Shown here: positions 1 through 64,000 of the stretch, one piece after another
Numbering within the stretch: the first letter of the stretch is position 1
Layout of the letters: each line of letters opens with the position of its first letter
Source: Paraspadella gotoi
Taxonomy: Eukaryota; Animalia; Chaetognatha
Direction: 5' to 3'
Assembly (NCBI GenBank): GCA_051294375.1
Contig: CM119265.1
Span: 16,560,005-16,624,004 of the forward strand
DNA length: 64,000 nt
Notes under the pieces: model-generated
What the model saw: only the letters and a program-made list of their open reading frames with translations
Databases searched by the model: none
Told to the model about the DNA's origin: nothing
Program-made: the position numbers and the translations under genes

Positions 1-3000
1 AAAAGTTTGTCGTTGATGCTTTTCGCCAGAGTGTCGTAGTGACTTCCTAAATCGTTAGATAAAAAGCTACTATTTTACAATATGCTACAATATGTATATT
101 GTATAGTCCAAACCCGCACCTTCTCCGTGAACTTTGACGAAAGAGTAGGCCATGCCCGCCATGGGGTCGGCAGACCAGCGAGTCACGAGATGAGCGATGG
201 GGTCAGGGACATCGCAGAACATCCCACGCAAAACACCCAAGCATTTGGCGATGATTTCAGTTTCGGACATCGCCGCCATAGCGTCGACAGCATCCCCAGA
301 AACCCAAGACATAAGTACGAAAGGACCATCTTCTTTACTCTGTAATAATATTAGTCAGTAAAGACAGGACTTAAGTTAAAAGTCGGGCTACGTTAAAAAT
401 AGTCTCTTACTTCGTTCACTTTCGGCGAGAGATCGTAAAAAACACCAAACCAGCCGCGATCGCTCTCCGCGGAGGGGATGTGGCCGAAAAAGTCTGCCGA
501 CCCGACCTTATCCGCCCAGAAGTTTCGTTCAAACCTAAGCGCAACCTTTTCCAATCGGCCGGCGCCCAGTTTGTTAATAGCGTCGAGTTTTTCTTCAGGC
601 AGCGGCGGACAAAACTCCACGGCGCCGTCTTGCAATTGCCTTAACGGCAGCGTGACTACGACCTTGTCAGCATCAAAAGGACCGTCGGCCGTCGTAACAC
701 GTACGCCCTCCCCAGAGTAATCGACCGACACAACGCGAGCCCCGAATCGAATGTCCAGCCCGTCGGCCAGTTTTATGAGCAACGCCTGAAATCCGTCGAC
801 CAAGAGGCAGTGCTCGCCCGCAAACTGATCGTATTGATCGTTGTGATCCCAACTTCGGGCGCTAACGTGGCGGAGGTTCGATCCGCAGGCGTACTCTAAG
901 TTGGATACGTGAAATAAAAACGCTCGTTGTTCTTGTTCCGTTTCCTTATTGAGCGCCTTGCCCCATTCTTGCATCCTCAAATTAACAAAAAAAATTATTA
1001 AGCATGAAATAAAAATTATTTAAATGGAAGTTACTAATTCAAAACCTTTTTAACAAGCTTTCATCCTCGGCGACCGTCTTCCCTTTTCTCCATTTAGCCG
1101 AATCATCGAGAGCAGAGTTAAAGAGATTGTTGACGCCGTCGTCGACATTGTACTCTAAGAGCTCGCCATTTCGCGCGTCTATTAAATCGCATTTGGAAGA
1201 GTTCATTTCCCTGAGATGAAGACCGGATTGATGACACATAAGCGTCACCGGGTTGTTGACCACACCAACGACAATGTGAGCCCCCTGTCCCACTGGAACC
1301 CCGGTCGTGGAGGTGTCGTCCCAAACGCGTCCGCCGATGCGGTCGCGCCCCTCAATAACAACAACCTCGGAACCAAAGTTGTGAAGTTGGCGAGCGGCGG
1401 AGAGCCCAGAGGGTCCGGCCCCGATAACGACCACCTTGTATCGCCTGAACTTCGAGGGCAGAAACCCATCGTCGGGTTTCGGTAAAATTCCCACATTGAC
1501 GAAGCCTTTGATCGTTAGGAAGATTAGGATTTTTCGAGCCGCCTGGAGACAGTAGACGCGAACGAGACCGCGAACGATCACGTGTTTGGCAATTTCCGGC
1601 ATCGTTAACCACTTGCGAGGCGATAACGTCCACAACGCAACTATTGTGTTTCTCAAGCCAAGATATAAATACTGCGCACGTTCGTATTGGGAAAACGCTT
1701 CCAACTCCCACGGTTCCATGACGTCGGGTCGAATAGCTCGAGCCTTTTGAGATTCAAACGGTTGATAGAAGGGCTGAAGATTATGGTTAACGCCAACCGG
1801 CGTGATGGTAGTCGCCACGGCACCGCCCAAGTGCTTCGTAGGGGAAGTCTGAAGGTAAGGATGGGGAGATCGTTTCGAATCGCCAGATTTTTTAGCTTTT
1901 GATGCGGAGCGTCTTAATTTGGCGCTGGCAAAGCCTTTGGGCCGCTCCGTATCAGAAGGCGTCACCGTCGTCTCTTCGGGCATCGCGCCATTCGCAGAGT
2001 TTTCTTTTGGTGAGAGCGGCGCCGCAGGTTCGCGTCCGCTGACGAGGTTAGAATGCTTCTCGCGGTTCTCTTCGTCAGTGGACTTACATAATTCGCAAGA
2101 GGGGCTGAGTCCGACGCCATCTGGATAATACTCGTAGAGGAACAACGCCGCCGGGGATGACTTTAGCAAAGGTACCGCCGAGAGCGTGGAAAGCCATTTG
2201 CTGCCGCCAAGGTCCCCAAAGTCAGCCCGAATGTGATACGCACGAGAATCTTCGGGAATATCGCAGGCCTTGGTTGATCTTGTAACCGTTGTGCCCGTGT
2301 CGAAAATGACTCCGCATGTAAAGCGCGTCACGTAATCACGTGTAAGTTCAACGGCTCGACCGAGTTGGCGCCACTTTCCACACTCTGCGCGAGTGCATTC
2401 TACCCAAAATGGAAGAATCTGATCGGCGGCGAAGTTACGCATGGTCCCTTCGACGTAACGCGAATTGGCTTGCCAGTGGCGCTTCCATTGCATATACCGC
2501 GTTTTCCGTCCGATTCGGTGTCCTCCGCGATAGTAGACCTCGTAGCAGTCGTTGCAAAAATGCTCACCGGAAGATAAGTGATACCAGCGAGCAGTAAAGC
2601 TACCAGAAATAAAATTAATTAATTAAAATAATAAAAAAGTACGATTTGGCAACCATCATACCGGGAACTCGCGCAAGAAGGAGCCTCATTTGCGAAACAG
2701 ATTGGGACGTCCAGTGGGCAACCTTTTCGTTCGCAGGGTCTCGCTCCACTCTTATCTGCGAAAGGACTTTCGGCCCTGGGGTCCTTGGCAAGTTCGCTGC
2801 CCGGGGAAGTCCCAGCGTCCGTGGCAATGACTCGGCGTTTAATTGTGCGACCCGACCTTGACGACGCCGGCATCCATGGCGTCTTCGAAGGGCCGACCTC
2901 GGATTTTGTAGGCGCGGTAATGGATTTCGGTGGAATCGTCAGAATAGTTTTATCCGGCGGAACTTTAGCCGGTGACACCTCGGCGGGAGTCGATGGGGAC

Positions 3001-3236
3001 AAAACTTTTTTAGATTTCGTCCTCGATCTTTTCTTGGTCGAGACGACGGACGATGCTCGCCTCGCGTTTTGTGTGGGTCTCGCGAGATCAACCTCGGTTT
3101 CCGTTGTTAAAGTTACAAGTTTCCTTTTTTTCTTAGAGCTCAACTCGGCAACTTCTCCTCCCTTCTCCACTTCGGTGTCCGAAGGGTCCAACTTGAATGA
3201 CCCGTCGGTGGTTTCGCCATCATCCGAAACCGACAT
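1..3236 (-). CDS. KDM1B: Lysine-specific histone demethylase 1B (LSD2), multi-exon, 3' end runs off the window
   Basis: Spliced ORFs give a C4H2C2 zinc finger (CERKGC...RWYHLSSGEHFCNDC), zf-CW (WVECTRAECGKWRQL), SWIRM (YLGLRNTIVALW), FAD-binding VVVIGAGPSGLSAARQL...EGRDRIGGRV and amine-oxidase motifs (NLEYACG, VTRWSADP). Exons ~3236-2662, 2599-1046, 975-411, 339-120, 45-1, all GT-AG. Confidence 0.95.
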
Positions 3237-3573
3237 CGCCGGAAGAAAAACCTCTCACGCTCTCGCTCTCTCTCCTACTAAAAAGGAATGAAAATTTCGA
3301 AAAACTTTTGTTCTACTGTTTGGCCAACACCCGAGAAGAAAAGTATAAAGGGAGTGCATGATTTGTAACGCTAACTAAACTAGAAGTTTTCTAAAAAAAT
3401 ATTATAAAACAATTTTTAACTAAAAATAGTTTTCAAAATCAGGCACCACCCGTATTGTAACAGCAGTGTGACTAATGTAAAACGACTAAATAGAATCAAA
3501 AATTCCAATCGATAGAAATGGATCAAAACAATCTTTTTAAAAAAAATCACTTTTGAATCACAAAATAACAGAG

Positions 3574-6564
3574 TCAAATAGGAAAAGTGACTAGCGCCGG
3601 ATCGACCGTGGCCACAGTTCTCGTGCTTAGATCTTGGGCATCCATAGACTCTAAGTCTCCAATCTCGTCGGCGTATATGGCGTAAATAGCGTTTTGACTT
3701 CGCGTGCGTTCTGCCTCGCTGCGCATATCAATATACTTAGCCTCGTAGGAAGGGTGAATGCGACGCACGTGCTTCATACAGTTGCCCGCAAGGAACGACT
3801 CGTGCGGGCAGTAAGGACATCGGAATCGTTTTCGCCCCTTGACGCCTCCGTCGGTCGGATGCTCGCGCAGACGGTGTTCCTTGAGGGCTCCGGATGTGGC
3901 GAACTCGTGCGAACACTCGGGACAAACGTAAATGGGTTTGTCTTCGCTGTGGACGCGCTTGAAGTGGGCTTCCATGTGGCACTTGCGTTTGAAGAGCATA
4001 TTGCATTGTGGGCAGGGAAGAGATTTGACGAGGATGTGCTGAAACTTCTTGTGCTTGTTTACTTGCTCCCTGGTCGGTGCTTTATAGGCATGGCAAATGT
4101 CGCTAAAGAATAATTAAAATCGATTATTTAAAGAAGATAACGATTTATCCCGGGCATAAAATGTACCACTCGTAGAGAACGGCGCCTTCTAACAGCTTCT
4201 TGTGCTTCATGTACATGTGTACCGTGAATCTGCTTTTCCAAGGTGTCTTAAAGTCACAGTCGCCAAAATCGCAACGGAACACTCTCGAAGGATCAACGCC
4301 AATCCAGTGGGCATCCTTCTCGTGGATTTTGAGCAGAACGCTGTTTTTGAAACGTTTGCCACAAATTCCGCATAAGCGAGACTCCTTTTCCTGGAACGAC
4401 TTAGAACCGTGAACGTTTTTCATGTGATAAGATAACGAAGCGCTGTTTAACACTTTGCCGCATTGATCGCTGTCAAAATTTTTAAAAAATTTCAAAATTA
4501 GAAATAAGTAAAAAAAAAAATAAAGACAAAAATCGTTCGATGGAATTTCCCACTTACCAATTAACCATTGCCTTGACTCCCTCGTGGAGCTTTTTTCGAT
4601 GCACTTGCAGATCGGCCTTTCTCAAAAAAATGTGTCTGCATCCGAAAGCGTCGCAAGGATACGCGATGGTGGGACAGGCCATCTGGTGATGGTCGAGCAA
4701 ATGCCTGGCCGCGTGACGGTAAAAAACCATGTTAAACGACTGGGCCCTGGTTTTAAAATCTTTTTTGACCAACACGAAATCGCATCGTGGGCAAACGAAC
4801 TTCCCATATGGATCCAATGGGTTAGATACGTCCAGAAACAAGCACGGCTTCAAAACTGGATCCTGCGATAGCTTGCAAAAGGCGTTAGCTCGACCAAGAC
4901 AGTCAAGTTCCTCGTCTTCATCATCGTCGTCGTCGCAAAGGTCATCGTCAGTATCCTCGGTTCCCCCGTTTTGGATTTCTTGGTTTCCAGAGTTTCCGTT
5001 TTCCTTTCCCTCGCCGCTGCTCCGTAGCTCCGAATCCTCTACTCTGATCATACTGTGCATTCGGATGTGGTCGGTCATGGAGGCGGGAGAGACCGTGTCG
5101 CCGCAATCACCGCACGTGATTCGTCCGGAAACATCGAATTGAACCATCATTTCGTGATGTTGACTATTGACGTGATCGGCGACGTCTCTCTTTCTCACGC
5201 TTACGTAATTGCAGTGAATATCGAGACAGCGGTGGTACATTGTGGGGCAGAGGATCTGATGGGCTCGCAGGAGATGCTTGGCGCAGTGACGACGGAAAGT
5301 GCGAGCGGGTTTACCTCGGTACTGCGCGGCGAAATCGGACTTTGACAAGACGTACGCGCATCCTGGTTCAGCGCACACGAACTGGTCCCCGGAAACGCAG
5401 GGATCAAGGAAGGGATCGACTCCGCGGGTCAATTTGAATTCTCTAGATAATCTGTTGACGGCGGGACTTTTGGTGGGTGAATCTTTGGCATCACGAGTTT
5501 CTCCCCTGGGACGTTTACGAACTCCCTCGTCTATCTCTCGATAGCGCTTCTTTTTGCCCCGTACTTTAGGCCTCCCTCGCTTGCCAATGTTCACGGGCTT
5601 GGAAGCGCGATCGAGACCCATGAGTTCGAACTCGCAAGTTTTACGCATCAATGACATTCGATGCGGAGAATCAAAACGGAAGGCATCTTCGGTCCACTCG
5701 TCAAAAGCTTCAGTTTTGACGACGGGTTCCACGGAAACGATTAGTTCTTCACCGACGATCGTAACGGGATTAGCGGGGGTCGATTCCGAAAGCGAATCCT
5801 GACCCTCCACCAACGGGGCAAAATCAACCGCATGATTTGGAGTGGAGCTTATCGATTCCCGAAGTGACTCTGGCAGCCAACGAAAGGCGAAAAAGTCTAC
5901 GAGCTCGTTGACGCTGAGCACAGCGGACGTGGTAGCTACGGCGGTTGCCAAGTCGGTCGTAAGAGGCTTCTGGTCCAACTCTTCGTCTTCGCCATACATC
6001 CACGACAAAACGAATTGCAGAGAGTCTTCACAAACGTCAGCCGGAAGAAAAACATGATGGGTCCCGTTGACATCAGCCGACAAAGAAGTTAATGCTGAGA
6101 AACGAAAAAAATAACCGAGAGAACTAAAGACGCATTAATTTAATCTACAGAAGCTTGTTGAATGAAATAAAAAGCCTAGGCAACTTTAGAATAATTAATT
6201 ATTATAAATTCTAAAGAAAATTAGATTTTTAAATATTTTCTTTGCTTCCTACTAAAAAAAAAGCTTTAAAAGCTAGAATTTTTTTTAGCGACTTACTTTC
6301 AAAAAAGTAAGGGCTGCAGGCGGCCAGAACCACTTTGTGAGCAAAAAGTGGAGGAGGAGGCGGATCGCCCGGTTCGCCCACAGGTTGCCCTGCCGACCAA
6401 CCTCTTGATGAAAAGTGAAGGGCTACATCGCAGAAAAGGCCGTTGACGCGAAAGTTACGAAGCGCCTTTCCGATCGACGGGGGGTCAGGGACCCAAGGGG
6501 GGACGCGACCCTCGGGAAAAGAGTTCCTTGCCCCGGGGGAGTCAAGGGCAGGGAGTTCAGTCAT
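3574..6564 (-). CDS. BTB/POZ plus multiple C2H2 zinc-finger protein, 4 exons
   Basis: BTB motifs GLFCDVAL...FAHKVVLAACSPYF and FVLSWMYG, then many CxxC...HxxxH fingers. Exons ~6564-6297, 6084-4558, 4469-4167, 4102-3574. Junctions rebuild VNCDQC and YECDIC in frame. Confidence 0.9.
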
Positions 6565-6957
6565 CCCCGACTGGTCCGCCTCGCTACCATACTAAAACAA
6601 TTTAGAAACAACAGGGACAAAACAGGAATTACAAAATGACCAAAAGTATTAAAAAAAATTGCTAAGAAAATCATTGTAGAACAGAACGAAAACAATGGAA
6701 AAATGATATGCCTTTGTTACTTTAGTTATGATTTGAGCAACTTCTTTAAATGCCTGAATAAACTTTATTATATTACCTAATAGATAGATAAATTTCTGAG
6801 TCGGTATAACATCAAAATCTCAGCAAAAACTCGGCAAAGAAAAATAAAAGCAATAATTAAACACTAGTGTTAAAAATAACTAACTAGAAATTAAAAATCT
6901 AAATGGGACCTTAAAGGTACCCAGCAAATTTGACTAGCGAAAATAACATTTTAAAAA

Positions 6958-7677
6958 CTATTGGCGACGCCTTGAAAAACATAAAATATTGGTCCATAAA
7001 AAGGCAGCCAATCCAAGATAGGCAACGCGATAATGCGGAGGGACCAACTTAAAATTAACTATTTGCGCTAGAGGCCAAAAGAGACAGCCGGTGAGATAAA
7101 TCGAGACAAACTTCTTTCTCATAAGGGATTCCTCTCCCGTCAAGTCCGACGCTCCTTCGAAGGCGGGCACCGCAATCAAAAAGAGAGCGGTGACAGAGCT
7201 GGAGGCCACAGCCTGATCAAGCACCACCTTCTTGACGACTGTCAGCGGGGCTGCGCCAACGAAGAAAGAGTCCAGCACGCGGTACCAGGCGTGAAAGAAA
7301 GGAGCTGCGCCCGTGGCACCAAATAAGGCAACGTTAGTAATATCGTCAACAACGAAGGAAGCGCCATCTTCCCTTCCGCTCCGTCGTCGAAACAATTGTT
7401 GAGATATTTCCGCTGCTCCGTATAAAATTCCGATATAAGCCATATCCTTGGAAAGTGACTTTGATTCAAATATTTTTTTGAAACTCTTCAGTCTGTACGC
7501 TCTGTATGAAACAATGGTGACAGCGATACCGCTGGCGACCCCTGCGACGGTTTTAGTAATGAGGGATCGTCGATTGTCGACGATGAGGAGATTTTCTACT
7601 TTTTCTATAAGGAACGAGTCTTCAGTCTCCTTCTGCACCAAGTTGGGCAGCGCGACCAACGAAGACTGTTCCTCCAT
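6958..7677 (-). CDS. Mpv17/PMP22 family membrane protein, intronless
   Basis: Motifs WYRVLD, VVKKVVLDQ, FWPLAQIVNFKLVPPHYRV. Confidence 0.9.
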   Translation of the reverse strand: MEEQSSLVALPNLVQKETEDSFLIEKVENLLIVDNRRSLITKTVAGVASGIAVTIVSYRAYRLKSFKKIFESKSLSKDMAYIGILYGAAEISQQLFRRRSGREDGASFVVDDITNVALFGATGAAPFFHAWYRVLDSFFVGAAPLTVVKKVVLDQAVASSSVTALFLIAVPAFEGASDLTGEESLMRKKFVSIYLTGCLFWPLAQIVNFKLVPPHYRVAYLGLAAFLWTNILCFSRRRQ

Positions 7678-7778
7678 GCTGCCAATCCAAGCTTATGGTA
7701 CTGTCAACAATAATCAACATAAAACCACTTTCTTAAAATCGTCTAAATACAAACAAAACAAATGTATAAAATTATTCG

Positions 7779-8306
7779 CTATTCTCCAGTGTTTTCACTA
7801 CTGAAATCCGTCCTTTTAAACTTTTTTAACACGAGGTTGGGCAATTCCTTTACTTTTCCGTTCCATGACTTGAGTGCCTTAAACCCCGCCGCGTGCAACA
7901 CGTCCGGCAACTCGATCCCCGCGCCCTCGAATTCTTCCTTCTCCTGACCCAAAGTCATAGCAATGGCGTCTTGGCGCGCCGCGTTTTGACGTCCGTGACG
8001 CTTTGGAATCGATTGGATGAGGGCGATTTGCTCCATTTCCGAGTCGAAGCGGGAGAAGTAGGCGTCAATGACTCGAAGCATCTGCTGTTTGTTCAGTTTC
8101 TCGTCCTCGAGGAATAGTTCATTTAGTCTTTCTTTGAAAAACATCATCTTGGAAGCCTTGTTCTCCAGGCGAGCTAGTTTTATATCTTGAACTTTCTTCA
8201 CTTTATCGTGGTGCGCTTGGTAGTGAGATAAGTGTTTCGCCTTTCGACTGTTTGGATGAATATAGGCTTTGTCATTGCCCACCTTTTTTCCTTTTGTCTT
8301 GCCCAT
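7779..8306 (-). CDS. TMA16: Translation machinery-associated protein 16, intronless
   Basis: IHPNSRKA motif, YFSRFDSEMEQI, EKEEFEGAGIELPD and WNG motifs. ATG taken at 8306. Confidence 0.9.
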   Translation of the reverse strand: MGKTKGKKVGNDKAYIHPNSRKAKHLSHYQAHHDKVKKVQDIKLARLENKASKMMFFKERLNELFLEDEKLNKQQMLRVIDAYFSRFDSEMEQIALIQSIPKRHGRQNAARQDAIAMTLGQEKEEFEGAGIELPDVLHAAGFKALKSWNGKVKELPNLVLKKFKRTDFSSENTGE

Positions 8307-8334
8307 TTTACATATGTATGAAATTGGTATATAA

Positions 8335-8362
8335 CTGAACAAAAAAGAAAAAAAACCAAGAT
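8335..8362 (-). promoter_or_regulatory. Candidate trans-splice acceptor before TMA16
   Basis: tcttggttttttttcttttttgttcAG, 28 nt before the ATG. Confidence 0.6.
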
Positions 8363-8594
8363 AAATATGACGAGAATAATGACCTAATTTTAAGGTTTAT
8401 TTTAAAGATAAAACATGAGCTACTATAAATATCACAGAAAGACAAAGAAAAAAAGAATATTCGCCATACTGTCATGACCAAACCAGTTGAATTATTGCGA
8501 TCTAATCCCCATTTAAAGTTAAATCCAAAACCTGAGCAGTTTTATCAGATTCATTAATAACTCGCCTCGACGGTCCATAATCTAAAAAATGTCT

Positions 8595-9248
8595 TCACTG
8601 CGGTGGCTCAACCGGATACTGTCCTCCCCAAACGGCTACCATTCCGTTGTTGGGTCCGACAAAAAACTTGTCCGATTCTATATACTTCTTGATTGTAGGC
8701 AGCTCTTTGAATCTTTGATGGTAGGCATTGATGTTCGGCAAGGGATCCAAATAGCCCGGTTTAAAAAGCAACAGCTGATCCAACATCTCCCAGAATATAA
8801 AGTCGGCCCAAGTGAGAGACGCTCCAGCAAGAAACTCTTTACCCTCCAAGAACTTTTCCATCGGCGTAAGGAATTTGGTCAGGTTTTCTCGAAACTGGGA
8901 AAAGGGGTAAGGCTCACCGCCGCCGTAACAAATTTTGAGGAAGGCGCGACGAAGGTCGACAACTTGTTCAGCGGCCATATCGCAGAGATTCTGTTCCAGC
9001 TCGGTCTTCCCCATCAGCCCATACTTGCGAGCCAAGTGGCGCAAAATAGCGTTGCTCTGCGTCAGTTTCAGATCGCCGTCGACGTAGTAGGGCAAATTCG
9101 GAAAATCTAAACCGAGGTTGAACTTTTCTCCAGACCACTCGTCCCATTTATCGTAAAACTTCTCATCCATATTTTCTTCGACATAGCCCATAAGGAGGCG
9201 GATTGGCTGGGCCAAGCCTCGTATTTTCCAATAACCCAAAAGCGGCAT
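8595..9248 (-). CDS. Mu-class glutathione S-transferase, intronless
   Basis: LGYWKIRGLAQPIRLL, KFNLGLDFPNLPYYVDGD, LTQSNAILRHLARK. Confidence 0.95.
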   Translation of the reverse strand: MPLLGYWKIRGLAQPIRLLMGYVEENMDEKFYDKWDEWSGEKFNLGLDFPNLPYYVDGDLKLTQSNAILRHLARKYGLMGKTELEQNLCDMAAEQVVDLRRAFLKICYGGGEPYPFSQFRENLTKFLTPMEKFLEGKEFLAGASLTWADFIFWEMLDQLLLFKPGYLDPLPNINAYHQRFKELPTIKKYIESDKFFVGPNNGMVAVWGGQYPVEPPQ

Positions 9249-9402
9249 CGCTGCGATTCTAAATTCTTAAATTGATTATGGAAGGCGATAAAACATGTAA
9301 AATATAATCATATATAGCCATAAAGGCTTATAGCCAACAAGACAATAGTTAGGTAAAACACGGGAATAAAAAAAAATTAAAAGGATGAAAAAGTGGTAAT
9401 AA

Positions 9403-10739
9403 CTAGTTTTTCCATCTCCCACCAAATAGTGTAGTTTTTCGTCTGTCATAGGCGACTTTTTTCGTTGCGCTTGGGGAGGAACACTGCAAAGCAGATTCTA
9501 ATTGCGAGCAAAGCAAATCGACCTCCTCTTCGCTGAGGACGGGAGACATTTCGGGCAAAGAGTCTTTCGAGTAAGAAGATCGTGTCCGGCGACTTTTTGG
9601 GGCTCCAAGCACCAAGCCATCGGGAAATAACTAACCGATAAAAAAAAAAAAAAAAACGGGGGTTGATAAATGTGTTAAACTTAAAGGTATGTAATACAAA
9701 TATCGCAACTTCTGAGGCGATATTTATAGTAATTCAAGTGCAAGAAAGGATAATAAAAGATATGAGGATAGGGAAATAAATAAAGTTCGGAAACAAGGAA
9801 GAATGAGGTCTGAGATTAAAAAAAAATCTTAAACAATCTGTAATTNNNNNNNNNNAGAGAGAGTATAAATTGTAATTATGGGAAAAAATCACCTTTTGAG
9901 CGACGTTAATCCCTCCGCTGAGTAAAAAGACATTTTCGTAACCTCGCTCCACAAGAATGGTGGCGGCCCTGGGAGCTAAAGACTCGTCTTCGTCGTACAC
10001 GACGACGATCTTCCCGTCGAGGTTTCGGAATGATCGAAGTTCCGGCGTTTCAAAGCGCGTGGCGCGGGAAAGACGCGAGCGAGGAAAGTTTTTGGCCGTC
10101 CGGATGTGACAGACTTGATATTCGTCCGCCTCGCGAACGTCGAGCAGAAGATAAGGAAGGGCGAGGTGATTTTCGGTATTTTCCTTGTCGGCGTCGTCCG
10201 TGTCGCTCAATATCTGGGAGACGCTCATTTCTCCGCTCCCTAACGCGAAGCTCACGAAGCTCGACTGCGAGGTCGTAGAATTCATAGAGACGGCCGACCT
10301 AGGTCGAGCCGAGGAGGCAGACCTGGGCCGCGTATCCGATATCGCGGCCCGATTTAACGGTGAAGACGCTGCCTGAGCCGATCCGTCGAGCTCATCAACC
10401 GCCGGGGGTTCTGACGAGGTCACCGACTTCGAGTTGACTTCCCTGTCCACCTGAGATACTTGAATCATGATCTCGACCATGGTTGAAATTCGTATTCGCT
10501 TGAACAATTCTCCTTTTTTGTATTTGTAATTCGATTTCAATTCGTTAAGTTTGTCCTTATATCTGAAAGGGATCAAATTTAAAAAATTCAAAAACATAAC
10601 CATGGGAGGATGCAACTGTTAGGATTTACCTTGTCATACTCGAACCAGTATCGACAGTTGCCTTCACGTGGTCATACTTTGGATTCCGAGGAACCTTACG
10701 GTTGAAACCAGCTTGAAAGGAAGGGGCTCGGAAAGCCAT
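9403..10739 (-). CDS. CEP41: Centrosomal protein of 41 kDa (rhodanese-like domain), 3 exons
   Basis: Exon 1 gives KVPRNPKYDHVKATVDTGSSMT. Exon 2 gives YKYKKGELFKRI, PYLLLDVR, IVVVYDEDE, ERGYENVFLLSGG. Exons ~10739-10630, 10563-9893, 9630-9403. Confidence 0.93.
9846..9855. other. Assembly gap (10 N) inside a CEP41 intron
   Basis: Run of n in the sequence. Confidence 1.
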
Positions 10740-10926
10740 GACTTCACTTTATAATCTGATTAGAAAAGTCACGGATGATTAATGATGGATGTACAAATGA
10801 GGAATGATTAATAAATAAGAATGCATTTAATTATCGAAGCTCATGAACTCATGATAGAAAGTATTTAGTGTCCGATTATCTAGCAAACAGAAATTGACTA
10901 ATGGGAAGGAGCTAATCCTAAGCGTT

Positions 10927-18574: not shown

Positions 18575-19520
<946 letters not shown>

Positions 19521-51947: not shown

Positions 51948-54900
51948 TTAGGCAGAAGTAACGGCGGTTTTTTCGGAGCTGATAAAGAAAGTTTTAAGAT
52001 TGTCATTAAGCTTAACAAAACCGATATACACTACTACTGTTACGGTAAAAATTTCATTAAAACAACCTAAGAATGACAAAGAAATACCTTACCTTGGTTT
52101 CTTTGTCTTCCCGCAAACGTCCTTTAAATAGATTTGTAAGTCGAGGCCACAACTGGAGAGACAACGCGCAACCAAGAGAGAAACGTCTTTTAAGGCTTTC
52201 TCATCGTCTGGTTCAAGATGGCCCAACTCGAAGAGAAACCATTCCTTCCACATCGACGAATATGTTGGATTCAATTCCAGGCATTTGCTAGTTCAAAAAT
52301 TTAACAATAATGAGTATAAATAATAAGTGATATACCGAAGAATAAGCAAAACGATGCCAGACCTGAAAAGTGACCTGGCGGTTGAGATATGACCGTCCTT
52401 CAGCGTACAAGAAATTAAGAGCTTCCAAAGGCAGATTAAGTTCGGGGTTTTCTTCAAGCAATCTTCGATCAAGAGACCAACAGTATCTGGCTTTAATGAC
52501 GCAACGTTCTCATCATAGGATTTAGAGAAGAAAAAGCTGGCCAGTCGAAGGATGAGGTAAGCGTTGGCCGGGTAGGCTTGGATTAATCGGAACAGCAACA
52601 AGGGCCAAACTCGATCGTCGCAGTGACGTAGAAACAAGTCTATGACCTGATTATGAAAGGAAAGATCCTCCCATTCGATCGCCTTCTCCGGCGAAGTGAC
52701 CATCACTAAACCATCTCCCTGACGAGCGATCGGAGACGTAGAAAGGCAGCGTTTGAAGACTTTAATAAACCTGATGACGTCGACTCCTCCATTCGAAGAA
52801 GTCGTCGTGGCCGGAGATTCGGTTAGGCAGCGCGATACGTAGGAGAGATAGTGTAACCATAGGATCTGACGAGGATTACGTCCCAACATCAACAGATCCT
52901 CAAAAGTATTATCAAAAGTGGTAGGAAAAAGGGAAAGCGACTGTTCGAAGGCGTCGCCTATTCTTGACTGTTCTTTGGTGGCAGGGAAAGCGAGTTGTAA
53001 CCACTCAATGTAGCAGAGCCATAAGTAGGTTCTTCTCTGGGGCTTTTCCAAAATGAAAGTGCTGAAAGATTCCGATGGAGGAGGGAGAAGTCGACGAACG
53101 CCTTCGACGTCCTCACTAACTTCTTCTCTCGTTATTATGCCCAAAGCCTTTTCGAATAGAACTTGAATTAACGATTCTCGGGTTAAGGAGTCAGTTTCAA
53201 GAAGCTTTAAGTTGGAGTCCTCTAGGTTGAAATGTGTCATCAAATATTTTTCGATTATAAATTTTGATTTACTGGATGATGCTAAAACGAAAATTGGATA
53301 TGGATCCCTCGGCCAGATAGATGTCACTAACTCGAGTTCTTTCCGGTACAAATTGGGTTTCATTTCGGGATTTAATCCGACTAATTTTGTTCTTAAATCG
53401 TATAGGATTTTCCAAACTTGAATGTTTTGCTTCATTGTTAACGAAGACTGCATGAAGTTTTGTAAACGATCTATTATGGTAGTTAAATGCTTTTTTACTT
53501 TGCCACTTTCTTTATCAGAAATCGAATCTATTGAGACCAATATCATTGGTCCAGCTGTGTTCGATCTTGGAAGGATAGTTGCCCAATAGAAATAATTGTA
53601 AAGCAGAGGAACACCCGGATGAGAGTAGTAATAATTCTCTGTTGCTTCGCCTTTTACTGCAATATCTTGCTGATATTCTAAGTCAATCTTTTTTATAGCT
53701 AAAAATAGTCTATTTCCAATATTGTTCCAATATTTAATGTTGGAAATAGAAGCATTCTTATAGGGAATGAGAAACATAGCATTTTTATCAACAACTGCGC
53801 CAAAAGTTCCCTGAGAGATATCGAAAATACAGTTTGGAAGCTGTCCTTTTAATACGTAAGTATGAATGGATATAAGATGCAACGTGGCACGATCATTGAC
53901 TGTAAGATTTTTGCTGACTTGTGACAATAGGTTGATCATATCAGGTTCAGCATTAATATTACCCGAAAAGGATTTCTCGTTCAAAACAACATCGAAGATT
54001 TTAGCGATTCTCGCAACGAACTGACATGAATTCATCAATGCGATCAGGTTCATAAGTAATGTGAACAATTTATGTGAGAGAGTTTTTGGCTCTTCAGCAG
54101 TTGTGCGAGTGCATAAATACTCTATTCCTTCCTTTAAAGTTTGTAACTTTCCCTCAAAACAATTTTCAATTGTAAACCGCCAATGGTAAAATTTGAAATC
54201 AGGAATGGCAAGGATAGCTTGCTTCAACAACCCGACCATTTCAATTGGATCCCAGCTCTCTTTTGATTTCTGATACTTATCGAAAACTGAAAGGTAACGG
54301 AACCACAAATCTTTAGAATCATTATTCAACTCCAAGCCTCTGGCTAAAACGTTCAAAGCTGATTCAAATCCATCTTTTAAATTCTTGCCAGTCCTTAATT
54401 TGATAGAGGCCAACTTCAGCCAGAGGTTAATTTGGTCAGGATTTTCCATCACAGTAGTCTCGATATCGTCAGTCATTTCGGTAAAAAAAAAGTCATCACC
54501 ATAACAATTATCTCCACCCATAGGATTTTGTAAATTAATAGCTTCGTCATAGTCCTTTTCTTTCTTGGTCATTTTCCACCTCTTCCAAACTATTTCTTGA
54601 TTTTCATCAACATTTTCAATTGCATTTCCAGTATTTGGTTTAAAAGGTTTCCACGGAGGCTCTCTTTGAAGTAAAAGTACATCCGAGGATTTTCCTACTT
54701 TTTTTGGCAATGACTCGATAACTTTTGACGACGTTAATATGGCAAGATCCTCAGTAGAAACATCTTTAAAAGCATTTTTTCGGATGAAATCCTTTGAAAA
54801 ACTTTCCAGAAGTATTGACGCTTCGGATTCTGTTAATTTTTTCTGATCTTTGGTTGTAGATACCAATTCTTCTGGGCTATAGGCAGCTAAATCCATCACG

Positions 54901-57900
54901 ATTTGACTTGTGGTCATGGTCAGATCACCATGATGTATCTTAAAACAGTTCTTATCATTGCAAGTTCCACTTAGATCGAAGGGACAGAAAATGTTATCAG
55001 CCGAATTACATTTATAAGAAAAAGATACTGACGAAATTTTCAAACCATTTTTTAATCTAAATTTTGGCAAAAGACGATAAGACTTTAAAGAGGATAATGG
55101 ACTCTTATATAGTTTGTGAGTATAATTTGTGCATCTCTTGGTGTTTCCAAGGGCGTTTCTTTGTGAGGCATCATCATCAACTTCGGCTTCTTCATTTGAC
55201 CGAATTTTTTGAGAAGTGTCACTTCCTAAAATGAATGGAGGGACATCGCTATATTGCTTTTCTGATAGGGGAAATATCATATCATATTTAATTGAATTTA
55301 AAATGTTATTCTCTTTAATTTTTTCCAAAGATTCGTAACCAAAATCACCTCTCAACATAACTAAATCTTTTAGTACCGAAGGATTTTTTTTTTCTTTTTC
55401 AGACTGAAGTTTTCGGATTTGAATCATTTTGGTTTCTGGTGGTAACTCAATAGAGATCGGGTTTTCTCTTGGCCGAATAATTTTCTGGTTTTCAACAAGA
55501 AAACCCTCATTAAAATGTGGTTTTATTCCGGAAGAACTCAATTCAGACAGACTCCTTTTGCTCCTTTGAATAAAGTTTTCTCGCTTTTGGTCATTAGCTC
55601 CTTCTGCCTTATTCATAAATGAATATTGTTCAAGAGATCTTCGAATCGAAAGTTCTTTTTGATGTTGAGCTATTCTTACTGCCATCTCACGTTCCAGTTC
55701 CTGGAGCCTATTCCTCTCTTTCTGAACTTCATTCTTATCCATTCGTTGAATTTCGTGAACCGATTTTAATTTTTTAACGGGAGAACCTTGTTCCCCTTCA
55801 GCTTTTCGTTTGTGATTATTTTCAGGCTCAACGTCAACATCAAGGACTTTCAACTTTTTAATAATGGAATCCTCTAAAGACTTCTGCTTCGTCAAACGTT
55901 CTTGATCTGATACCAAGCGTTCTTTTAACGTCATAATTTCTTCGTTAGTTTTTATGGAGTACTTTTCCATTTGTTTTAATTGATCTTTAATTTTTTTTAT
56001 TTTCTCTTCATTCTTAGTCAGTTCCTTGATTTTACGATTCATACTAGATTTCACTTGAAAAATATCTTTAGTTAATTGCTTTATGTTTTGGTTATTGGAA
56101 TAATACATGTTCCTAACAGTTTTTACTTTTTCTTTCTGTGCATTTGAAATCAACGTTTTAGTTGTTTCGGTTGGATTAACTTGAGCATCAGCAGAAAACT
56201 TGGGCGAAAGAGTGGTTTCAGATTGAGAGGCGTTTTCTCCTTCATTAATTGCACAAGGTTCAACCAGTTTGTTGACGACAGCTGTTCGCCTGGACAACTC
56301 CAGCTTAAGTTTCAAATATTCCTTTACTTTTTCAGCGTTAAGCAAGTCCACAACACTCTTTTCTTTGTCAATCAAAGATTTGTTGGCCTTTTGATCAGCG
56401 TCTGCAGCCTGACGGGCCTCTTTTAAGAAAGAATCGATATTGGTAGAAATTGTATTATCACTTTTCTTTGCATCTAAAGGTACATTACTTTTCCCTTCAA
56501 CTTCTTCGTTTTCATCGGAAGAATCATTTCCGATGGAGATTATCACAGGAGAAATCTGAGGAAAACGAGGCTTTTTAACCAAACGCGAGTTTATTTGTGT
56601 TGGTTTAACTGCCGAGACGTCGGAAATCTTGCTTTGAGACGAGGACTTGACGGGTGCCACGACGGAAAGCAAAGAGTTCGTTTGAGATTTCCCGCCTTCC
56701 AATGAAACCTCTTTAAGCACCGTTTCACTAGAAGTGTCATTTTTGTTTTTTGATAAATTACCGGTTTTTTTTGCCTTCTTTACGACTCTTTTCTTTTTAA
56801 CCACATTAGTTTGTCGAGAGGCAGCCGGTTTGTTGTCTTCTTTGTTAGGCTTATCGTCCAACCGCGTCGTCGAATCTAAGTTTACAAGAAGCGATTGTCC
56901 CTCTACATCCTGTTCTGGAACAGGAACAGGCTGTGGGGAGTCATCAGCCGAGTCTCTTTTCCTCTCCGCCATGGCCGCTAAGAGCACTGCGCGTATGGCG
57001 TCGGGATCTTCGTCATCGTCTTCCCCTTTAGAAGTAGATCGTCTCCTCGAGGGTTGGCCGAGGCTTGTTGTCGAGTTAGTTTGGTTTTTGTCAACGAGTC
57101 GGCCAATAGCTTCCCATGCTCTTTCGCTCTCAATTCGGTTTTCCTCATTGAGCCGAATTTCCGATCGACTCCTCGACTTTTCCTCCGTCTTTTCAAGGAG
57201 CTCCCAAGGATCTTCTTCGCTGATGTCGCTCATTTCTGACTCGTCTTCCTTTAGATTTCGTAGATCCTCCTCTAATTCGACGAGGTGTGGGGGCGAGGGG
57301 GCTATGCGTGGGCCCGGTGGCGATGTCGCTATCGGCGCGGCGAAAGACTTTGAGCGTGAGGAGGTCGGCATCTTCGGTGGCGAAGGCGCTGGAAGAGGTA
57401 TCTCCGCGACGCCGGGTAAAGAAGACGAGAACGACGGCGGGGGCGGAGCTTGGCGCGGCGGCAGATGAGAAAACGTGGCGACGGCCACTAAGGGCGGAGG
57501 GGTAACCACTCTCGGACGTGGCAAGGAAATATCCATGAGATTGGGCGGAGTTTCCCGAGGCGGAGGCGGAGGTGGCGAGAGCGGTTTGGATGGCAAAGGG
57601 GGGCGATCAAAAAAAGGTGGAAAAAAGGTGTTAGTTCTCAGCGGTAGCAGCATTTCCGGCATTTGCGGCATCTGAGGTGCCTCTCCCATTTTCATCTCTC
57701 CGCGACGACGCGAGCGGACTTCTCGTTCGTCGTCCGATGACCCGATTTCCATAGAGATGCGTTCATAGTTGTCCCGGTTCGAAAGGGATTCACGACGCAG
57801 AGTCGAGAGCCCGTGGCGAATGTGAGCAGGAAAGTGATCCCTCCGTCCTCCCTCAAAAAACTTTAAGTTTCCCCTCCTTGTTTTTCTCCAGTCGATATCC

Positions 57901-58907
57901 CCGTGATCCTTAAACCTGACTTCCTCAATAATGACGTCATCATCATCATCGTCGTCGTCCTTTACTTCTATGACTTCGTCTTCGACGTCGTTCTCCTTGA
58001 CTTCACCCTCTTCCTCTTCGGCGTTCTCAACATTCAGATCATCGGTCAATAACGCAGGATTTCGTCTCGCGGCCGACTGCAGAGCCATCATTCGAAGCTG
58101 TAGCTCCTCGACGGTTTCGTCTTCTTCCTCTTCGTCGGCTCCCGGAATGATGGCAGGGCCCGCAAAAATCGTGGATGGCGTCCGACCATCGTCGCCGTTT
58201 TCGGCGTCGGGGGAGGCGGGAGCGTCATCAAATACCACGCTGTCCTTGGCAACGACTTCGATCGAGGGATGACGTTCCGAACTGTCCGGCAAAGTTTCGG
58301 TTTCCGGTATCGAACGCTCGGGCGTAGGTGGTCCGGACGACAAGTAGTTGTCAATTTCGATGTCGTTTTGATCCTGCTGATACTTGTCGATTAGCTCAAT
58401 CCGGTCCTGAATTTTCTTGTATTCTTTTAACATGCTGTCGAAGTTTTCATTGTCTACGGGTAAGCGGGAAGATATTTTCTCGCTATCCTTCGACGAAAAC
58501 TGAGAGGGTCGTGAGTAACGAGACGAGGAAAACTCGAAACCTTTATATTTTCGAGCTTCGACTCCACGGGATCTCCAATTCTGGTATCGTTGGCCGTTCG
58601 ACGGCGGGGATCTCCGTCCTGCGTGAGAAGGCGGAGAGCGGTGTCGACGACGGTATTCTTCGCCTATAGGCAAGGCCGTTCGCGGAGCCATGTCCTTAGA
58701 TCGATCGCGACGCTTTGAGGCATAGCGCTCGGCAGCCTGCATCGCTGTCAATGGAGGAGACCGACCGGAAGACCTGCCTTTGGGAATAGAGTCCACCCAG
58801 ACCCGAGCTGGAGGAGACGGTCGTCGACCAGGCGGTCGACCCCGGCTCGAATCCAGAAACTCCACGTCGTCCATCTCTTCGATTTCGCCGTCCTCCAAGT
58901 CACCCAT
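51948..58907 (-). CDS. ZFC3H1: Zinc finger C3H1 domain-containing protein (PAXT exosome adaptor), 3 exons
   Basis: LEDGEI motif, LQLRMMALQSA, proline-rich region, coiled coils, YKSPL...FCPFDLSGTCNDKNC zf-C3H1, HAT/TPR-like ALNVLARGLE. Exons ~58907-52363, 52287-52093, 51978-51948 (last exon less certain). Confidence 0.92.
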
Positions 58908-59312: not shown

Positions 59313-60823
59313 TCAAGCCAACAAAATCTCTCCATTCTTTATGGTGATGTTGGGATTAAATTCTATTTTCTTTGTAATTTTTTTTTTAATCGTATCCTCG
59401 TTGATCGGGACATCTTTTTTAACGGAGTTAAACTCTTCTAGCACCCTTGAGGTGACCTGCGCAAAGGAAGCCTTCTTCGACGGGCAGGCGTCAAGAAATG
59501 AGTGAATGACACGGCCGAAGTCAAACCGTGGTCCTTTTTTCTTTTTCTTTTTTATTTCGGAGACTTGGACGGAGCCGAAGCTGACCCTTTTTTCGCTTTT
59601 TTCTTTAACAGAGGTCTCGTAGCCGTTCACCACCTTCGATTCCACCTCGATCTTGAGAGTTTTTCCCGGATCCTGGCTAGAGCCTTCTTCAAACCTTCTA
59701 TTCTTCCTACGCAGTTTTTTCTGGAGCTTTCTTTCCTCTTTCGCCTTAGGTTTCTCACCGGCAGCGGCGGCTATATCATCAGCGTCAGACGCTTCTCTCT
59801 CTCTTTTCGCTTTCTTTTTCGGTGGAGAGTTAAGTTCCTCGTCTTGGCCGTCGCCTCCCTTTCGTTTCTTCAACGGAATGACATCCATTTTCGGGTTGCT
59901 AAATGTATTTTCTTTTTGCTTTCTTGACTTTTTAATTGTGTTTTCTTTAATGGCTACTTCCTTTCCATTTGGGGGTTTATTCTCACCATTCATTAATTTT
60001 GGACCACGTTTCTTTTTCTTTTTAGCGATGGTTAATTCTATGGAATCGACCACAACATTCGTCGATTGAATTTCCAAATCTTTTTTCTTTTTTTTAATTT
60101 TTTTAATTTTTACGTTCGTTTCCACTTCATCGGACGCTTCTTCTACCATTTCTTTTTTCTTATTTTTCTCCTTTTTTTTCCCGGCCGAACCATGAGAATT
60201 GAGGTTTTCCTCATTTAAGTCGCTCGTAACTCCAGTCGCTGGAATCTCATTGCTATCATCGACTTGTCCGTTTCTCTTTCCAATGGTATTTGAGTCATAT
60301 GACGGAGGTTCAGTTCCCTTGGCATTTTCCAAAAAATTCCAGACAGCTTCGCAAACGCCGTTGTCGTACACCTTCAGGCTGCTTTTCAAAAAGTTGATCA
60401 GCTTGGTCTTTTTCCTGGGAATGTTGGGGTAATCCGGAAGCTTCTCTAACGTGTTAGTCACTCGTTTGTCAGAGTTAGGCTTTAGATTGCAATCTTGAAG
60501 GGCTTGATGAATCTTTGACAACCAGGCTTCCTGCAAACGGATAAAGTTGATTATTTACGTAAATGACAAAGTGATCAGTCAAACCAAATGACCTGCTTTG
60601 CGTCTCCTTTGCTCTGCTGAACCCGTAAGGATGATGAATTTTGTGCCTCGTACTTTTGCGATTCAGAGATGCATCGATTATGTGAGGCGAAATCCGAACC
60701 GAGAAATTCTACGCTGCAATCGATACAAGAGAAAACATCGCTTCTGCGGCATTGTGTCTTATGCTTCTCCACCTGATTTTTCTTGCAGTCTGTTCCGCAT
60801 CCGGCACACTGGAAATACACCAT
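59313..60823 (-). CDS. LYAR: Cell growth-regulating nucleolar protein, 2 exons
   Basis: MVYFQCAGCG...KKNQVEKH...FSCIDC...HNRCISESQKY, YPNIPRKKTKLINFLK, K-rich tail. Confidence 0.95.
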
Positions 60824-61154: not shown

Positions 61155-63651
61155 TTATTCATCGAGTGATAAGTTCGAGAGGTTAAGGATTCCCGTATCG
61201 ACGGGGGACTCGGGGCATTCCGCTACTAAGCAGTGACGACACTGATAATTGATGTCCTTTATGTTATCATTTGGCGAACTCCCAGGCGGTACGAGATCGA
61301 CGGCTTTGTCGACATCGAGTGAAGGTTCTAACATTTTTTTTTGTTTCATGGATGACTCCGGTAAATCTTTTAATCCTTCAACCATAATTTTCCCCTCCAT
61401 AGCTTCGGGCGGTGGGACTACGGATTGCGAACTTTCTTCGACGAATACGAAACCGTTTTCCACTAAGCGCTGAATCCCTGCGGCTTCCTCGACGACGGCA
61501 GTGTCCTCGACGGCTTCCTCCTCCGATATGGAGCCCAACGTCCCAAGTCTAGAGCTCGATGGGTGCTCCACCGTTTGATGCTGCTGCGGCGCCGGAAGAG
61601 GATTGAAAAAAATTTTTTTCAAGTCAGGCGCCGAGTGGGACCTCGACGTTCTGGAGGGGTTTTTTCCTCCCACAGTCTCGATGGCCAGCGGGGTCGGATC
61701 CTTGAAAGGCGACGAGTAGAGAGGTTTGGAAGAACCGAGTTTGGGATCGCCGGGACGACGCGACTCGGGTTCTAAGCGCAGTAACAGGCGTCCGCGCAGA
61801 TCAGCTAGTTCCTGCTTAAGAACGAGGTTTTCATCGCCGAGTCTCTGGATAAATTGGCCAGCCGGATTCTGATCGAAGAAGAGAAAGCAAAGAATAAAGG
61901 CGAAAATAAAGAGCGAACAAGCAATAGGTCACAACCTGAGCGATTGCAGGGCGACCTCCCTCTCTGCAGGCGTCAGTCAACATTTGGGAGGTTGTAGGGG
62001 TACGGATATCGGCTGGGCTGATTGAGACGAGACCAAAGCCCAGTCCTAAACGATATCCGCTTGCCACGATGATAAAGATGAAGACTACAAAAACGGCGAC
62101 TGGCCATAGATGAATCGGGATGTCTCTGAACACGCCTAAAAACCATAGATGTATTTTTAAAAAAAAAAGACTGAAGTAAAGATTTTTAGATATTAAAATA
62201 ATATTAAAATATATTACCAGATATGAACTTTCCCAAGGCGTTTCCAAGAAATTCCAACGGCTCAAACATCATTTGATTAATGGTGAAAACGAGGACTCGA
62301 ATCGGAGTAACCTCCGTAATAACATCGACCTGATAGGCATGGTGGAAGCGGCGACAGGCGTCTTGCTCTGGGTCGCCGAACTGAAAGGGTCTCGCCAAAG
62401 ATTTCCAGACGTCAGTGAATACGCTCAAAAAAAAGGAAGAGGAGTCTTCTTCGTTAAAGGAGGAATGGCATTGGGGGGGCAACTTTTGTGAGCGATCGAC
62501 AGCCTGATTTACTTGAGCCTGAGGAAAAATGGGAGCAAAGAAAGATTTTAATTTTAGAAGAAAAGTGACTGGTCAACTAAGAACTTACCTTTTGATAAAG
62601 GGCCACGCCGTTCCAGGGAAGACTGACGATAAATAGAATGACGTACAATAAAACAAGAAGCTTCAAAGCGTCAGAAAAGCAAAACGAAGAGATGCACAGC
62701 CTTCGAAGGAACCAAATGCCTGAAAGCGAATTGTTGGTAATTAGGACCAGCTTTATTTTAGTTCGTTTGGAAATTTAGATTAATGTAGTTGCAAAAAAAT
62801 AATAATATTCAAAATTACTCGTATTCTTCAAAAAATTAGAAATATAAAGTTATAGATATAACTTCTAATAGATTTTAAGTTAATTAATAATTAACAATCA
62901 CTCGATTAGATTTACCCCAAATCCCAGCGAATATTGGAACTAGCCAAAATAGATTTTGACGATTTTCAAAGAGTGCGGCGTAAGAAGGACGAGAAGAATG
63001 AGTCTCAACATCGTTTTCATCCGTCTCCCAGCGCACCTTAACCATCGCTGCGGAAAAATGCTGCAGCGCCCACAAGTTGTCCCTGCAAGCTCGGTCGTCT
63101 TTCGTTTTCGTCGTTCGCGAAACCACGCGACGCAGAAGGTCGAGATGGACGACCGGGAGACGAATGTCGGCGCGGAGGACGATCGCGTCGGTGTCCTCCG
63201 AATCTAGCCGCCCATCCGACGGAACGACGTCAAGAATCTGTCGCATGAGTTTGTAAAATGTCGAGACGCAGACGAGAGACAGTTGGGATTCGGTTTTGCA
63301 AGTTGAATTGATCGAGACGTTCGCGGAAAATGCGTCGAGGGAGGGAATGGATCCTGGAGCGTCCGGCGCTTCGATCGTGGGTTCTTTCATCGGGGAATGG
63401 TTCACGGACTGCTCTTTGTTCAGACTCTCCTTCGTCGCGTTGGGACAAACGCAAGGCGGGCAGGGGGATTCAGGTTTGGAAGGTTTCATGGTTTTTGTGC
63501 TGCTGTCGTAGTTGAACATGTCTCGATAGTCGACGTAATTCTCAGGCAAATCATCATCAAGGTAATCGACGTTCGATCGTCGATCGCCGAGGCAAACAAT
63601 TAAGTTTAAAAAAATTAGACATATTGAGAGTTTCAAGCCGATCCGAGCCAT
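61155..63651 (-). CDS. CLCC1: Chloride channel CLIC-like protein 1 (MCLC family), about 5 exons
   Basis: Signal peptide, VDYRDMFNYDSSTKTM motif, DACRRFHHAYQVDVITEVTP, EPLEFLGNALGKF, TM segments. Confidence 0.85.
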
Positions 63652-63845
63652 GACGCTCAATTTCTCTCTAAATATTTAGAGGTAATAATTATATGAAAAC
63701 TTTGATATTAAACCTCATATTTAAAATTAAACATTTAGCAGCTTGAATAGCCACGAAAAAAAAAATAAATAGTAAAATCAGAAATAACGGTTGTGGCATA
63801 GATGTTAATGACACATGGTTCTAATTTGCAGGAAAAAACAAAAAT

Positions 63846-64000
63846 TCAAACACTCATATTAATTAATGCGTCCTTATCAGCCCTTGCGCTCTTCTCGTTC
63901 TCGATGTGATAAAGCACGTCGGCGAGTGCGGCTTCAACGTACGAGAGTTCCACGTTGTCGCTCATTGGCCGCCACGAAGAACGGTCCATGTCTTTCGGGG
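63846..64000 (-). CDS. 3' end of an unidentified upstream gene
   Basis: Exon-like GC-rich open frame PKDMDRSSWRPMSDNVELSYVEAALADVLYHIENEKSARADKDALINMSV* running off the window. Confidence 0.6.
   Translation of the reverse strand, partial: PKDMDRSSWRPMSDNVELSYVEAALADVLYHIENEKSARADKDALINMSV

Follow-up and report, generated by a model that had tools for sequence, protein, structure and literature searches.

A same-strand run of 21 genes in a chaetognath genome is likely an array of animal operons partly linked by RNA contigs

Introduction

Trans-spliced operons are already known in chaetognaths. In Paraspadella gotoi, 18% of genes have been assigned to operons by a 250-bp spacing rule, the longest holding nine genes, with housekeeping content (PMC12460157), and in Spadella cephaloptera a two-gene operon and more co-oriented clusters were found on one bacterial artificial chromosome (PMC2481426). 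Chaetognath genomes also carry the traces of a burst of gene duplication and are methylated on transposons only (PMC12460157). Of two preprints on chaetognath genomes, the excerpt available from one (10.1101/2025.03.14.643333) offers nothing on operons, and the word "operon" has a count of zero in the other (10.64898/2026.06.08.730799). Here we analyze a stretch of 64,000 nt of the P. gotoi assembly GCA_051294375.1 (contig CM119265.1, positions 16,560,005–16,624,004; hereafter "the window"), in which all 21 non-nested genes lie on the minus strand, and ask how far this run compares with an operon or a series of operons. The locus or its ortholog may already be annotated among the published P. 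gotoi operons (PMC12460157).

Animal operons are in general regarded as short, mostly comprising two genes, with maxima of 8–11 genes in published accounts. The largest reported are the tunicate operons, with up to 11 genes (PMC4122922), although the maximum in Ciona is 7 (PMC7986045); those of Oikopleura dioica are defined at 500 bp (PMC11067885), and one class of leader is used in both (PMC4122922, PMC11067885, PMC7986045). Operons of C. elegans reach 8 genes and those of Macrostomum lignano 9 (PMC8629364). A maximum of 9 is also given for Schistosoma japonicum, in an account of parasitic flatworms that describes how operon genes become fused in assemblies and annotations (PMC12582326). In C. 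elegans, polycistronic precursors that have already been spliced of their introns have been reported (PMC2777434). Our literature search, from which subscription papers were mostly absent, found no animal operon of more than 11 genes.

Gene layout

Gene models for the whole window were built from open reading frames in six-frame translation, Pfam scans and splice models. Miro and DNAJC17 were named by their homologs, and the remaining names follow from Pfam domains (Table 1): ZFC3H1, SNAPC4, metaxin-2, senataxin, DRAP1, PARP6/8, CEP41 and KDM1B are what we take to be the orthologs, and the name BRAT1 for the HEAT-repeat gene is presumed with less certainty. This independent modeling returned 21 non-nested genes, 21/21 on the minus strand across the 64 kb, exactly as the first-pass annotation had reported; the first and last genes are truncated at the window edges. 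In the direction of transcription, the order is gene 1 (3' end), CLCC1-like, LYAR, ZFC3H1-like, SNAPC4-like, DNAJC17, Miro, metaxin-2-like, senataxin-like, BRAT1-like, DRAP1, NVL, PCGF3-like, PARP6/8-like, SWI5-like, CEP41-like, glutathione S-transferase, TMA16, Mpv17-family, BTB zinc-finger and KDM1B-like. The stop-to-ATG gaps were also re-derived and all 20 are identical to those given earlier (from left to right 337, 393, 101, 288, 154, 187, 493, 211, 103, 542, 167, 1563, 262, 637, 237, 110, 1002, 405, 331 and 194 bp), with 16 of 20 below 500 bp and the four shortest at 101–154 bp.

Other statements about the run had to be narrowed. The absence of a strand switch holds for the non-nested genes, whereas the plus strand does contain a predicted gene inside an NVL intron and, within an intron of SNAPC4, a fragment of a reverse transcriptase. 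The continuation of the run beyond the window is backed by RNA at the left end, whereas the right end offers just the end of a 50-codon open frame that has no Pfam match. The chance of 2^-20 quoted for the run is correct for independent orientations, under which a set of 20,000 genes would contain ~0.01 runs of this kind, but the expectation rises to ~5 if 70% of neighbors share a strand; the run by itself is therefore no proof of a single unit. Tandem duplication was ruled out as the source of the co-orientation, as the genes are mutually unrelated by Pfam. Applied to the window, the O. dioica cut-off of 500 bp yields blocks of ≥10 (at the left), 2, 2, 3 and ≥4 genes, and the 250-bp rule applied to stop-to-ATG gaps yields blocks of at most three, yet RNA contigs span gaps of 288, 337, 393 and 637 bp.

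RNA contigs across the spacers

The RNA evidence consists of the assembled contigs of one sequencing run from one study (X1; library type not on record), which were compared with window positions 24500–44400 and 2300–12560, together containing 14 of the 20 spacers. X1 shares 0.77 of sampled words with the window, and two runs from other organisms (X2 and X3) matched it at 5 and 0 short places. None of the runs listed as sharing sequence with the window is registered as RNA, and X1 is identified as such by its splicing: 19 of its intron joints were listed (15 of 30 in one stretch, four in the other), and all are GT-AG or GC-AG and on the minus strand. The X1 contigs follow the gene order of the window and differ little from its sequence, ruling out an assembly or annotation artefact.

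Single intron-spliced contigs bridge 9 of the 14 spacers. Three of these contigs join two genes each (SNAPC4–DNAJC17, Miro–metaxin and BRAT1–DRAP1), and a fourth, of 17,755 nt, passes through six consecutive spacers from the SWI5-like gene to KDM1B and so carries seven window genes with their introns spliced out. Assuming the KDM1B model, this contig meets window base 1 at around its position 10,980, so that ~6,770 nt lie outside the window, which at equal density would be room for about four more genes. In the spacer between PARP6/8 and the SWI5-like gene, the break lies solely within a poly-T tract that was skipped in the alignment, and both contigs run into the tract; the spacer between senataxin and BRAT1 is masked by repeats, and a contig of depth 9.6 connects both flanks of the miniature inverted-repeat transposable element (MITE) within it. 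The longest block thus runs from PARP6/8 through KDM1B, comprising eight window genes plus ~6.8 kb of spliced RNA beyond them; it is likely that this RNA-linked block equals or exceeds the published animal maximum, and it lies in a run of twice that size.

Three of the 14 spacers are unbridged: DNAJC17–Miro, with 67 nt uncovered, DRAP1–NVL, with 103 nt almost uncovered, and metaxin–senataxin, as deduced by bin-depth arithmetic. Furthermore, the PARP6/8 contig measures 4,124 nt against a modeled coding length of 3,978, leaving no space for PCGF3, and a fourth break is therefore placed between PCGF3 and PARP6/8. Such breaks are compatible with sites of RNA processing and with internal promoters alike.

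The extent to which DNA or precursor contributes to the contigs bears directly on the bridged spacers. In computable bins, introns below 270 nt have zero cover and two spacers have zero or almost zero cover, a pattern not expected of an even DNA background. Set against this, a long intron and the site of the MITE show low cover, of 5–14, so that spacers could be bridged by precursor or by background DNA. Moreover, contigs do not equate to molecules, and the depth of each is a single value. Assemblers also delete short low-depth paths. The spacers are present in the X1 library, probably as RNA, at a level and in molecules of a size that contigs do not give. The longest contig in X1 measures 24,984 nt, and further multi-gene contigs may exist elsewhere in the transcriptome.

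Sequence signals at gene starts

The ends of contigs at two of the unbridged spacers carry letters with no place in the window. The Miro contig starts at an acceptor AG (40382) with 28 unplaced letters, the NVL contig starts at 25583, directly after an AG, with 9, and the DNAJC17 contig ends with 24; these are candidate leaders and a candidate poly(A) tail. A pyrimidine-tract YAG within 70 nt of the start codon was found for 14 of 20 genes, a count reached by 5 of 500 shuffles, in comparison with 6/20 after stops, 5/20 on the other strand and 19/63 in mid-spacer windows. As no cis-joint is listed in the six spacers of the 17,755-nt contig, the acceptors there look unpaired.

Several observations weigh against assigning these signals to one trans-spliced leader. 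The Miro alignment includes the G of the acceptor and the NVL alignment excludes it, and with different bases at the junction the two heads need not derive from a common leader. The leaders published for chaetognaths have A as their last base (PMC2481426, Table 3), which agrees with the NVL head and not with the Miro head as aligned. Both gaps can also be read as cis-introns, GT..AG of 68 nt (40449–40382) and of 70 nt, and the RNA-proven cis-intron in the Miro–metaxin spacer is a precedent for doing so. No leader-like loose ends are listed at the six gene starts within the 17,755-nt contig; however, assemblers drop short leader and poly(A) branches where a read-through path exists, and their absence therefore neither supports nor refutes a leader. 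Finally, the pyrimidine-tract rule was picked after the sequence had been read, and an acceptor weight matrix built from 21 introns gave a weak result (15/20 vs 10/20 and 9/20), with the sum reached by 42 of 500 shuffles.

Other signals in the spacers were surveyed alongside. In the Miro–metaxin spacer (37759–37838), an acceptor-like AG stands 8 nt before the donor of the proven cis-intron, a site of possible competition between cis- and trans-splicing. AATAAA is present in 9 of the 20 spacers; among the nine bridged ones, two contain it. Promoter-motif counts over the window spacers revealed no common element. The CpG-rich hexamer CGTACG occurs in spacers at 35780, 35722 and 18420 (three of nine copies in the window), all within the two spacers for which breaks were deduced, and a GC box adjoins the copy upstream of PARP6/8; CGTACG may be an element of internal promoters, a post hoc observation given as a lead only. 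An Rfam scan, which bears on the presence of a spliced leader RNA gene, gave no match within the 64 kb.

Number of transcription units

The layout, the removal of cis-introns on the minus strand, the X1 nucleic acid running through the bridged spacers and the two contigs that start at an acceptor AG are the observations; the leader, the positions of promoters and how many units there are we infer from them. The window behaves like an animal operon array, and its assignment to operons resolved by a leader is likely. On balance we favor a small number of long operons that abut one another and are resolved by trans-splicing of a leader, the longest predicted to contain at least nine genes. Under this reading, polymerase II would read through most spacers from few promoters, and cis-introns would be removed first, such that intron-free multi-gene precursors (or messages with abutting ends) yield fused contigs; 3' cleavage would then release the message of each gene, and a capped leader would be spliced onto an unpaired acceptor 5–60 nt ahead of most start codons. 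Of the two possibilities raised by the first-pass annotation, that of a few abutting polycistronic units has thereby gained RNA support, in the nine bridged spacers and in the one contig with seven window genes and ~6.8 kb more, whereas one unusually long unit was not demonstrated, with three spacers unbridged and a fourth break placed between PCGF3 and PARP6/8; it is retained as a rival.

That rival would place all ≥21 genes in a single polymerase II unit of more than 64 kb, double the size of the largest animal operon published, with a promoter beyond the right end of the window and every contig break a processing site. We consider this unlikely, though it is the strongest of the alternatives. 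It accords with the lack of a strand switch among the non-nested genes, with the small extent of the unbridged gaps (67 and 103 nt without cover), which end at acceptors, with a BRAT1-like contig that extends ~150 nt upstream of the ATG up to the edge of the repeat, and with the depth-9.6 contig that spans the central part of the largest gap. It has to contend with the unbridged spacers within an RNA comparison that covers 14 of 20, with gaps of 1002 and 1563 bp that could house promoters, and with the two spacers of deduced breaks holding all three spacer copies of CGTACG, one of them with the GC box; moreover, at a 70% same-strand rate, abutting operons alone produce such runs.

At the other extreme, each gene could have its own promoter, the contigs being joined by overlapping untranslated regions, leaky termination or DNA in the library. 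A contig over two genes is indeed no proof of a single transcript, one intron has low-depth cover, and AATAAA is found in nine spacers. In addition, no more than a few hundred bases would separate the start of the predicted nested plus-strand gene from an NVL exon, so small promoters are possible in the window. Such an arrangement would leave unexplained why 21 unrelated genes are co-oriented, with spacers as short as 101–154 bp and six consecutive spacers bridged, as well as the enrichment of acceptors ahead of start codons and the unplaced letters at acceptors, and we regard it as improbable. We give still less credence to stable multi-gene messages that have no leader, undergo cis-splicing alone and depend on leaky scanning or re-initiation for their translation. 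This would match the fully spliced 17,755-nt contig, which has no leader-like or poly(A) loose end, the cis-intron removed within the Miro–metaxin spacer, the possibility that both clear breaks are cis-introns, and the 11 of 20 spacers without AATAAA. However, the general understanding of scanning initiation makes at least seven coding regions on one capped message hard to translate, short leader and poly(A) branches are clipped by assemblers, the DNAJC17 contigs of relatives are of single-gene size (1.2–1.5 kb in 8 of 9), and the DNAJC17 and DRAP1 contigs stop short of the next gene. Abutting leader-resolved operons are thus the reading carried forward below.

Relatives of the window genes

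The Miro protein has environmental relatives at 72–74% and then 59–62% identity, with a best named match at 55% (Lingula); for DNAJC17, nine relatives at 62–66% are followed by a chiton at 52%. The best named matches of both proteins are lophotrochozoan, and no named chaetognath is among the matches listed for the window proteins. In FastTree phylogenies (49 rows chosen from 131 proteins plus that of the window for Miro, 31 of 121 rows for DNAJC17), which were drawn without non-bilaterian, tunicate, flatworm or rotifer rows, the window proteins fall in clades with environmental sequences, with support of 100 and 99, respectively, and the Miro clade splits into two mirrored subclades. The observed/expected CpG ratio is 0.98–1.54 in coding sequence and 0.66 in a fragment of a long interspersed nuclear element (LINE). 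The mirrored Miro subclades and the coding CpG ratio of about 1 or above fit chaetognath traits, each of which is also found in other lineages.

Searches for the neighborhood of these genes elsewhere gave little. TMA16 had 17 matches, 15 of them from the source "merc", which we take to be a marine plankton catalogue; contig sizes are given for two (3,902 and 933) and are uninformative. A metagenome scan with the Miro alignment returned 80 loci, none of the window lineage (full-length loci ≤56% identical) and none sharing a window neighbor. A cluster look-up of window proteins found 4 of 10, with 15 members.

Other features of the window

The coordinates of all features are given in Table 1. 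Intron loss is strong across the window: Miro, DNAJC17, the glutathione S-transferase, TMA16, the Mpv17-family gene and the SWI5-like gene have no coding intron, and the senataxin-like gene has one. The median of the modeled introns is 84 nt; the automatic models of NVL, metaxin and CLCC1 included false exons and were excluded from intron-size figures. Two neighboring GC-AG introns (43710–43787 and 43957–44049), two among the 19 listed joints, are present in SNAPC4. In the gap between ZFC3H1 and SNAPC4 (51153–51003), a short ATG-led frame precedes a strong donor (51098) and acceptor (51003); the frame, of ~34 codons, is a possible 5' exon or upstream open reading frame. A gap of 10 N at 9846–9855 falls in an intron of CEP41, and an RNA contig is spliced across it, supporting the local gene order.

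The 604-bp MITE reported in the largest gap was found there with its 8-bp duplication on either side, a mark that we take to be that of hAT-type elements. At this site (29847–30453), the depth-9.6 X1 contig keeps both target-site copies with two other letters in between, the footprint expected from excision of a hAT-type element. The protein of the predicted nested plus-strand gene has a hydrophobic N-terminus, a lysine-rich part and a coiled-coil-like part, and an acceptor-like AG stands 8 nt ahead of its ATG. Six window genes, SNAPC4, senataxin, ZFC3H1, BRAT1, DNAJC17 and DRAP1, presumably have functions at RNA ends or in small-RNA transcription.

Table 1. Features of the window in the direction of transcription of the minus-strand genes
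Feature	Positions	Strand	Evidence
Gene 1, 3' end, truncated by window edge	63846..64000	-	50-codon open frame ending at 63846; no Pfam match
CLCC1/MCLC chloride-channel-like	61155..63651	-	Pfam MCLC, E 0.00048, under cut-off; splice model
LYAR	59313..60823	-	Pfam zf-LYAR; splice model
ZFC3H1-like, single 6.5-kb exon	51948..58907	-	Pfam zf-C3H1 and HAT, weak; splice model
SNAPC4-like Myb-repeat gene	41492..50945	-	Pfam Myb; splice model; 3' exons confirmed by RNA joints
LINE reverse-transcriptase fragment in SNAPC4 intron	48280..48885	+	Pfam RVT_1, E 5e-14
DNAJC17, coding region intronless	40482..41381	-	Named homologs; shares RNA contig with SNAPC4 exons
Uncovered 67-nt stretch, DNAJC17 contig end to Miro contig start	40383..40449	-	RNA contigs
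Miro (mitochondrial Rho GTPase), coding region intronless	38337..40244	-	Named homologs; shares RNA contig with metaxin
Cis-intron within Miro–metaxin spacer	37759..37830	-	RNA joint
Metaxin-2-like	35819..37699	-	Pfam GST_C_6; four coding introns seen in RNA
Senataxin-like helicase	31137..35556	-	Pfam AAA_11, AAA_12; RNA contig
MITE, 604 bp, 8-bp target duplication	29848..30451	.	Sequence; depth-9.6 RNA-run contig connects both flanks
BRAT1-like HEAT-repeat gene	26997..29573	-	Pfam HEAT, weak; RNA joints; shares contig with DRAP1
DRAP1 (NC2 alpha)	26088..26829	-	Pfam CBFD_NFYB_HMF; RNA joint
103-nt stretch, almost uncovered, DRAP1–NVL	25584..25686	-	RNA contigs
NVL (AAA ATPase)	19557..25545	-	Pfam Nucleolin_bd, AAA
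Predicted nested gene in large NVL intron, ~600 codons, multi-exon, exon borders uncertain	20757..23091	+	Prediction; no Pfam family
PCGF3-like RING-RAWUL gene	18575..19453	-	Pfam RAWUL, RING
PARP6/8-like	11996..18363	-	Pfam PARP; splice model; last exon on 4,124-nt RNA contig
SWI5-like	10927..11502	-	Pfam Swi5, E 0.0092, under cut-off; atlas lead 0.86
CEP41-like rhodanese gene	9403..10739	-	Pfam Rhodanese; RNA joint
Glutathione S-transferase (mu-like)	8595..9248	-	Pfam GST_N, GST_C
TMA16	7779..8306	-	Pfam Tma16
Mpv17/PMP22-family gene	6958..7677	-	Pfam Mpv17_PMP22
BTB and C2H2 zinc-finger gene	3574..6564	-	Pfam BTB, zf-C2H2; three RNA joints
KDM1B/LSD2-like demethylase, truncated by window edge	1..3236	-	Pfam zf-CW, Amino_oxidase; splice model
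Stretch under the 17,755-nt spliced contig, which retains the six spacers between the SWI5-like gene and KDM1B	2300..11931	-	Contig record positions 16–8902

Discussion

The nearest counterparts of the window are the chaetognath operons, with which it shares co-oriented and closely spaced housekeeping genes and, probably, lineage-wide duplicates and gene bodies that have not lost CpG (PMC12460157, PMC2481426); it differs in that the published maximum is nine genes by the 250-bp rule, whereas the window contigs cross wider gaps (PMC12460157). Like the tunicate operons of Oikopleura dioica and Ciona, it contains head-to-tail housekeeping genes of unrelated functions, but intercistronic distances of ~0–60 nt are described there, against wider gaps and canonical introns here. 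Gaps of ~100 nt, like the processing gaps of nematode and flatworm operons, also occur in the window, and its multi-gene contigs may have their counterparts in the intron-spliced polycistronic precursors of C. elegans and in operon genes fused in assemblies, but the described maxima of 8–9 genes in these operons compare with a run of 21.

The first-pass annotation had also likened the run to the directional gene clusters of trypanosomatids, in which tens to hundreds of genes, almost devoid of introns, cover whole chromosomes. The long same-strand run of unrelated genes does resemble these clusters, so the comparison stands for the layout; it fails for gene structure, as the window genes mostly have cis-introns (19 RNA joints listed) and one opposite-strand gene is nested among them. 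The papers listed in our literature search for directional gene clusters in metazoans all concern trypanosomes.

Within its same-strand run of at least 21 genes, the window contains a block of at least eight genes and ~6.8 kb more that is linked by RNA contigs. If the reading as abutting leader-resolved operons is true, then limits on operon size derived from distance rules of 60–500 bp have been set too low, and the locus would provide a direct test of polymerase II passing many poly(A) sites without stopping. It is doubtful, and would require the entire run to be a single unit, that parts of an intron-rich animal genome work like the directional clusters of trypanosomes and that published operon sizes are artefacts of the cut-offs used. 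If the reading as abutting operons is true, the locus would also test whether, in an animal with its introns retained, fusion enlarges operons in the direction of trypanosome-like clusters.

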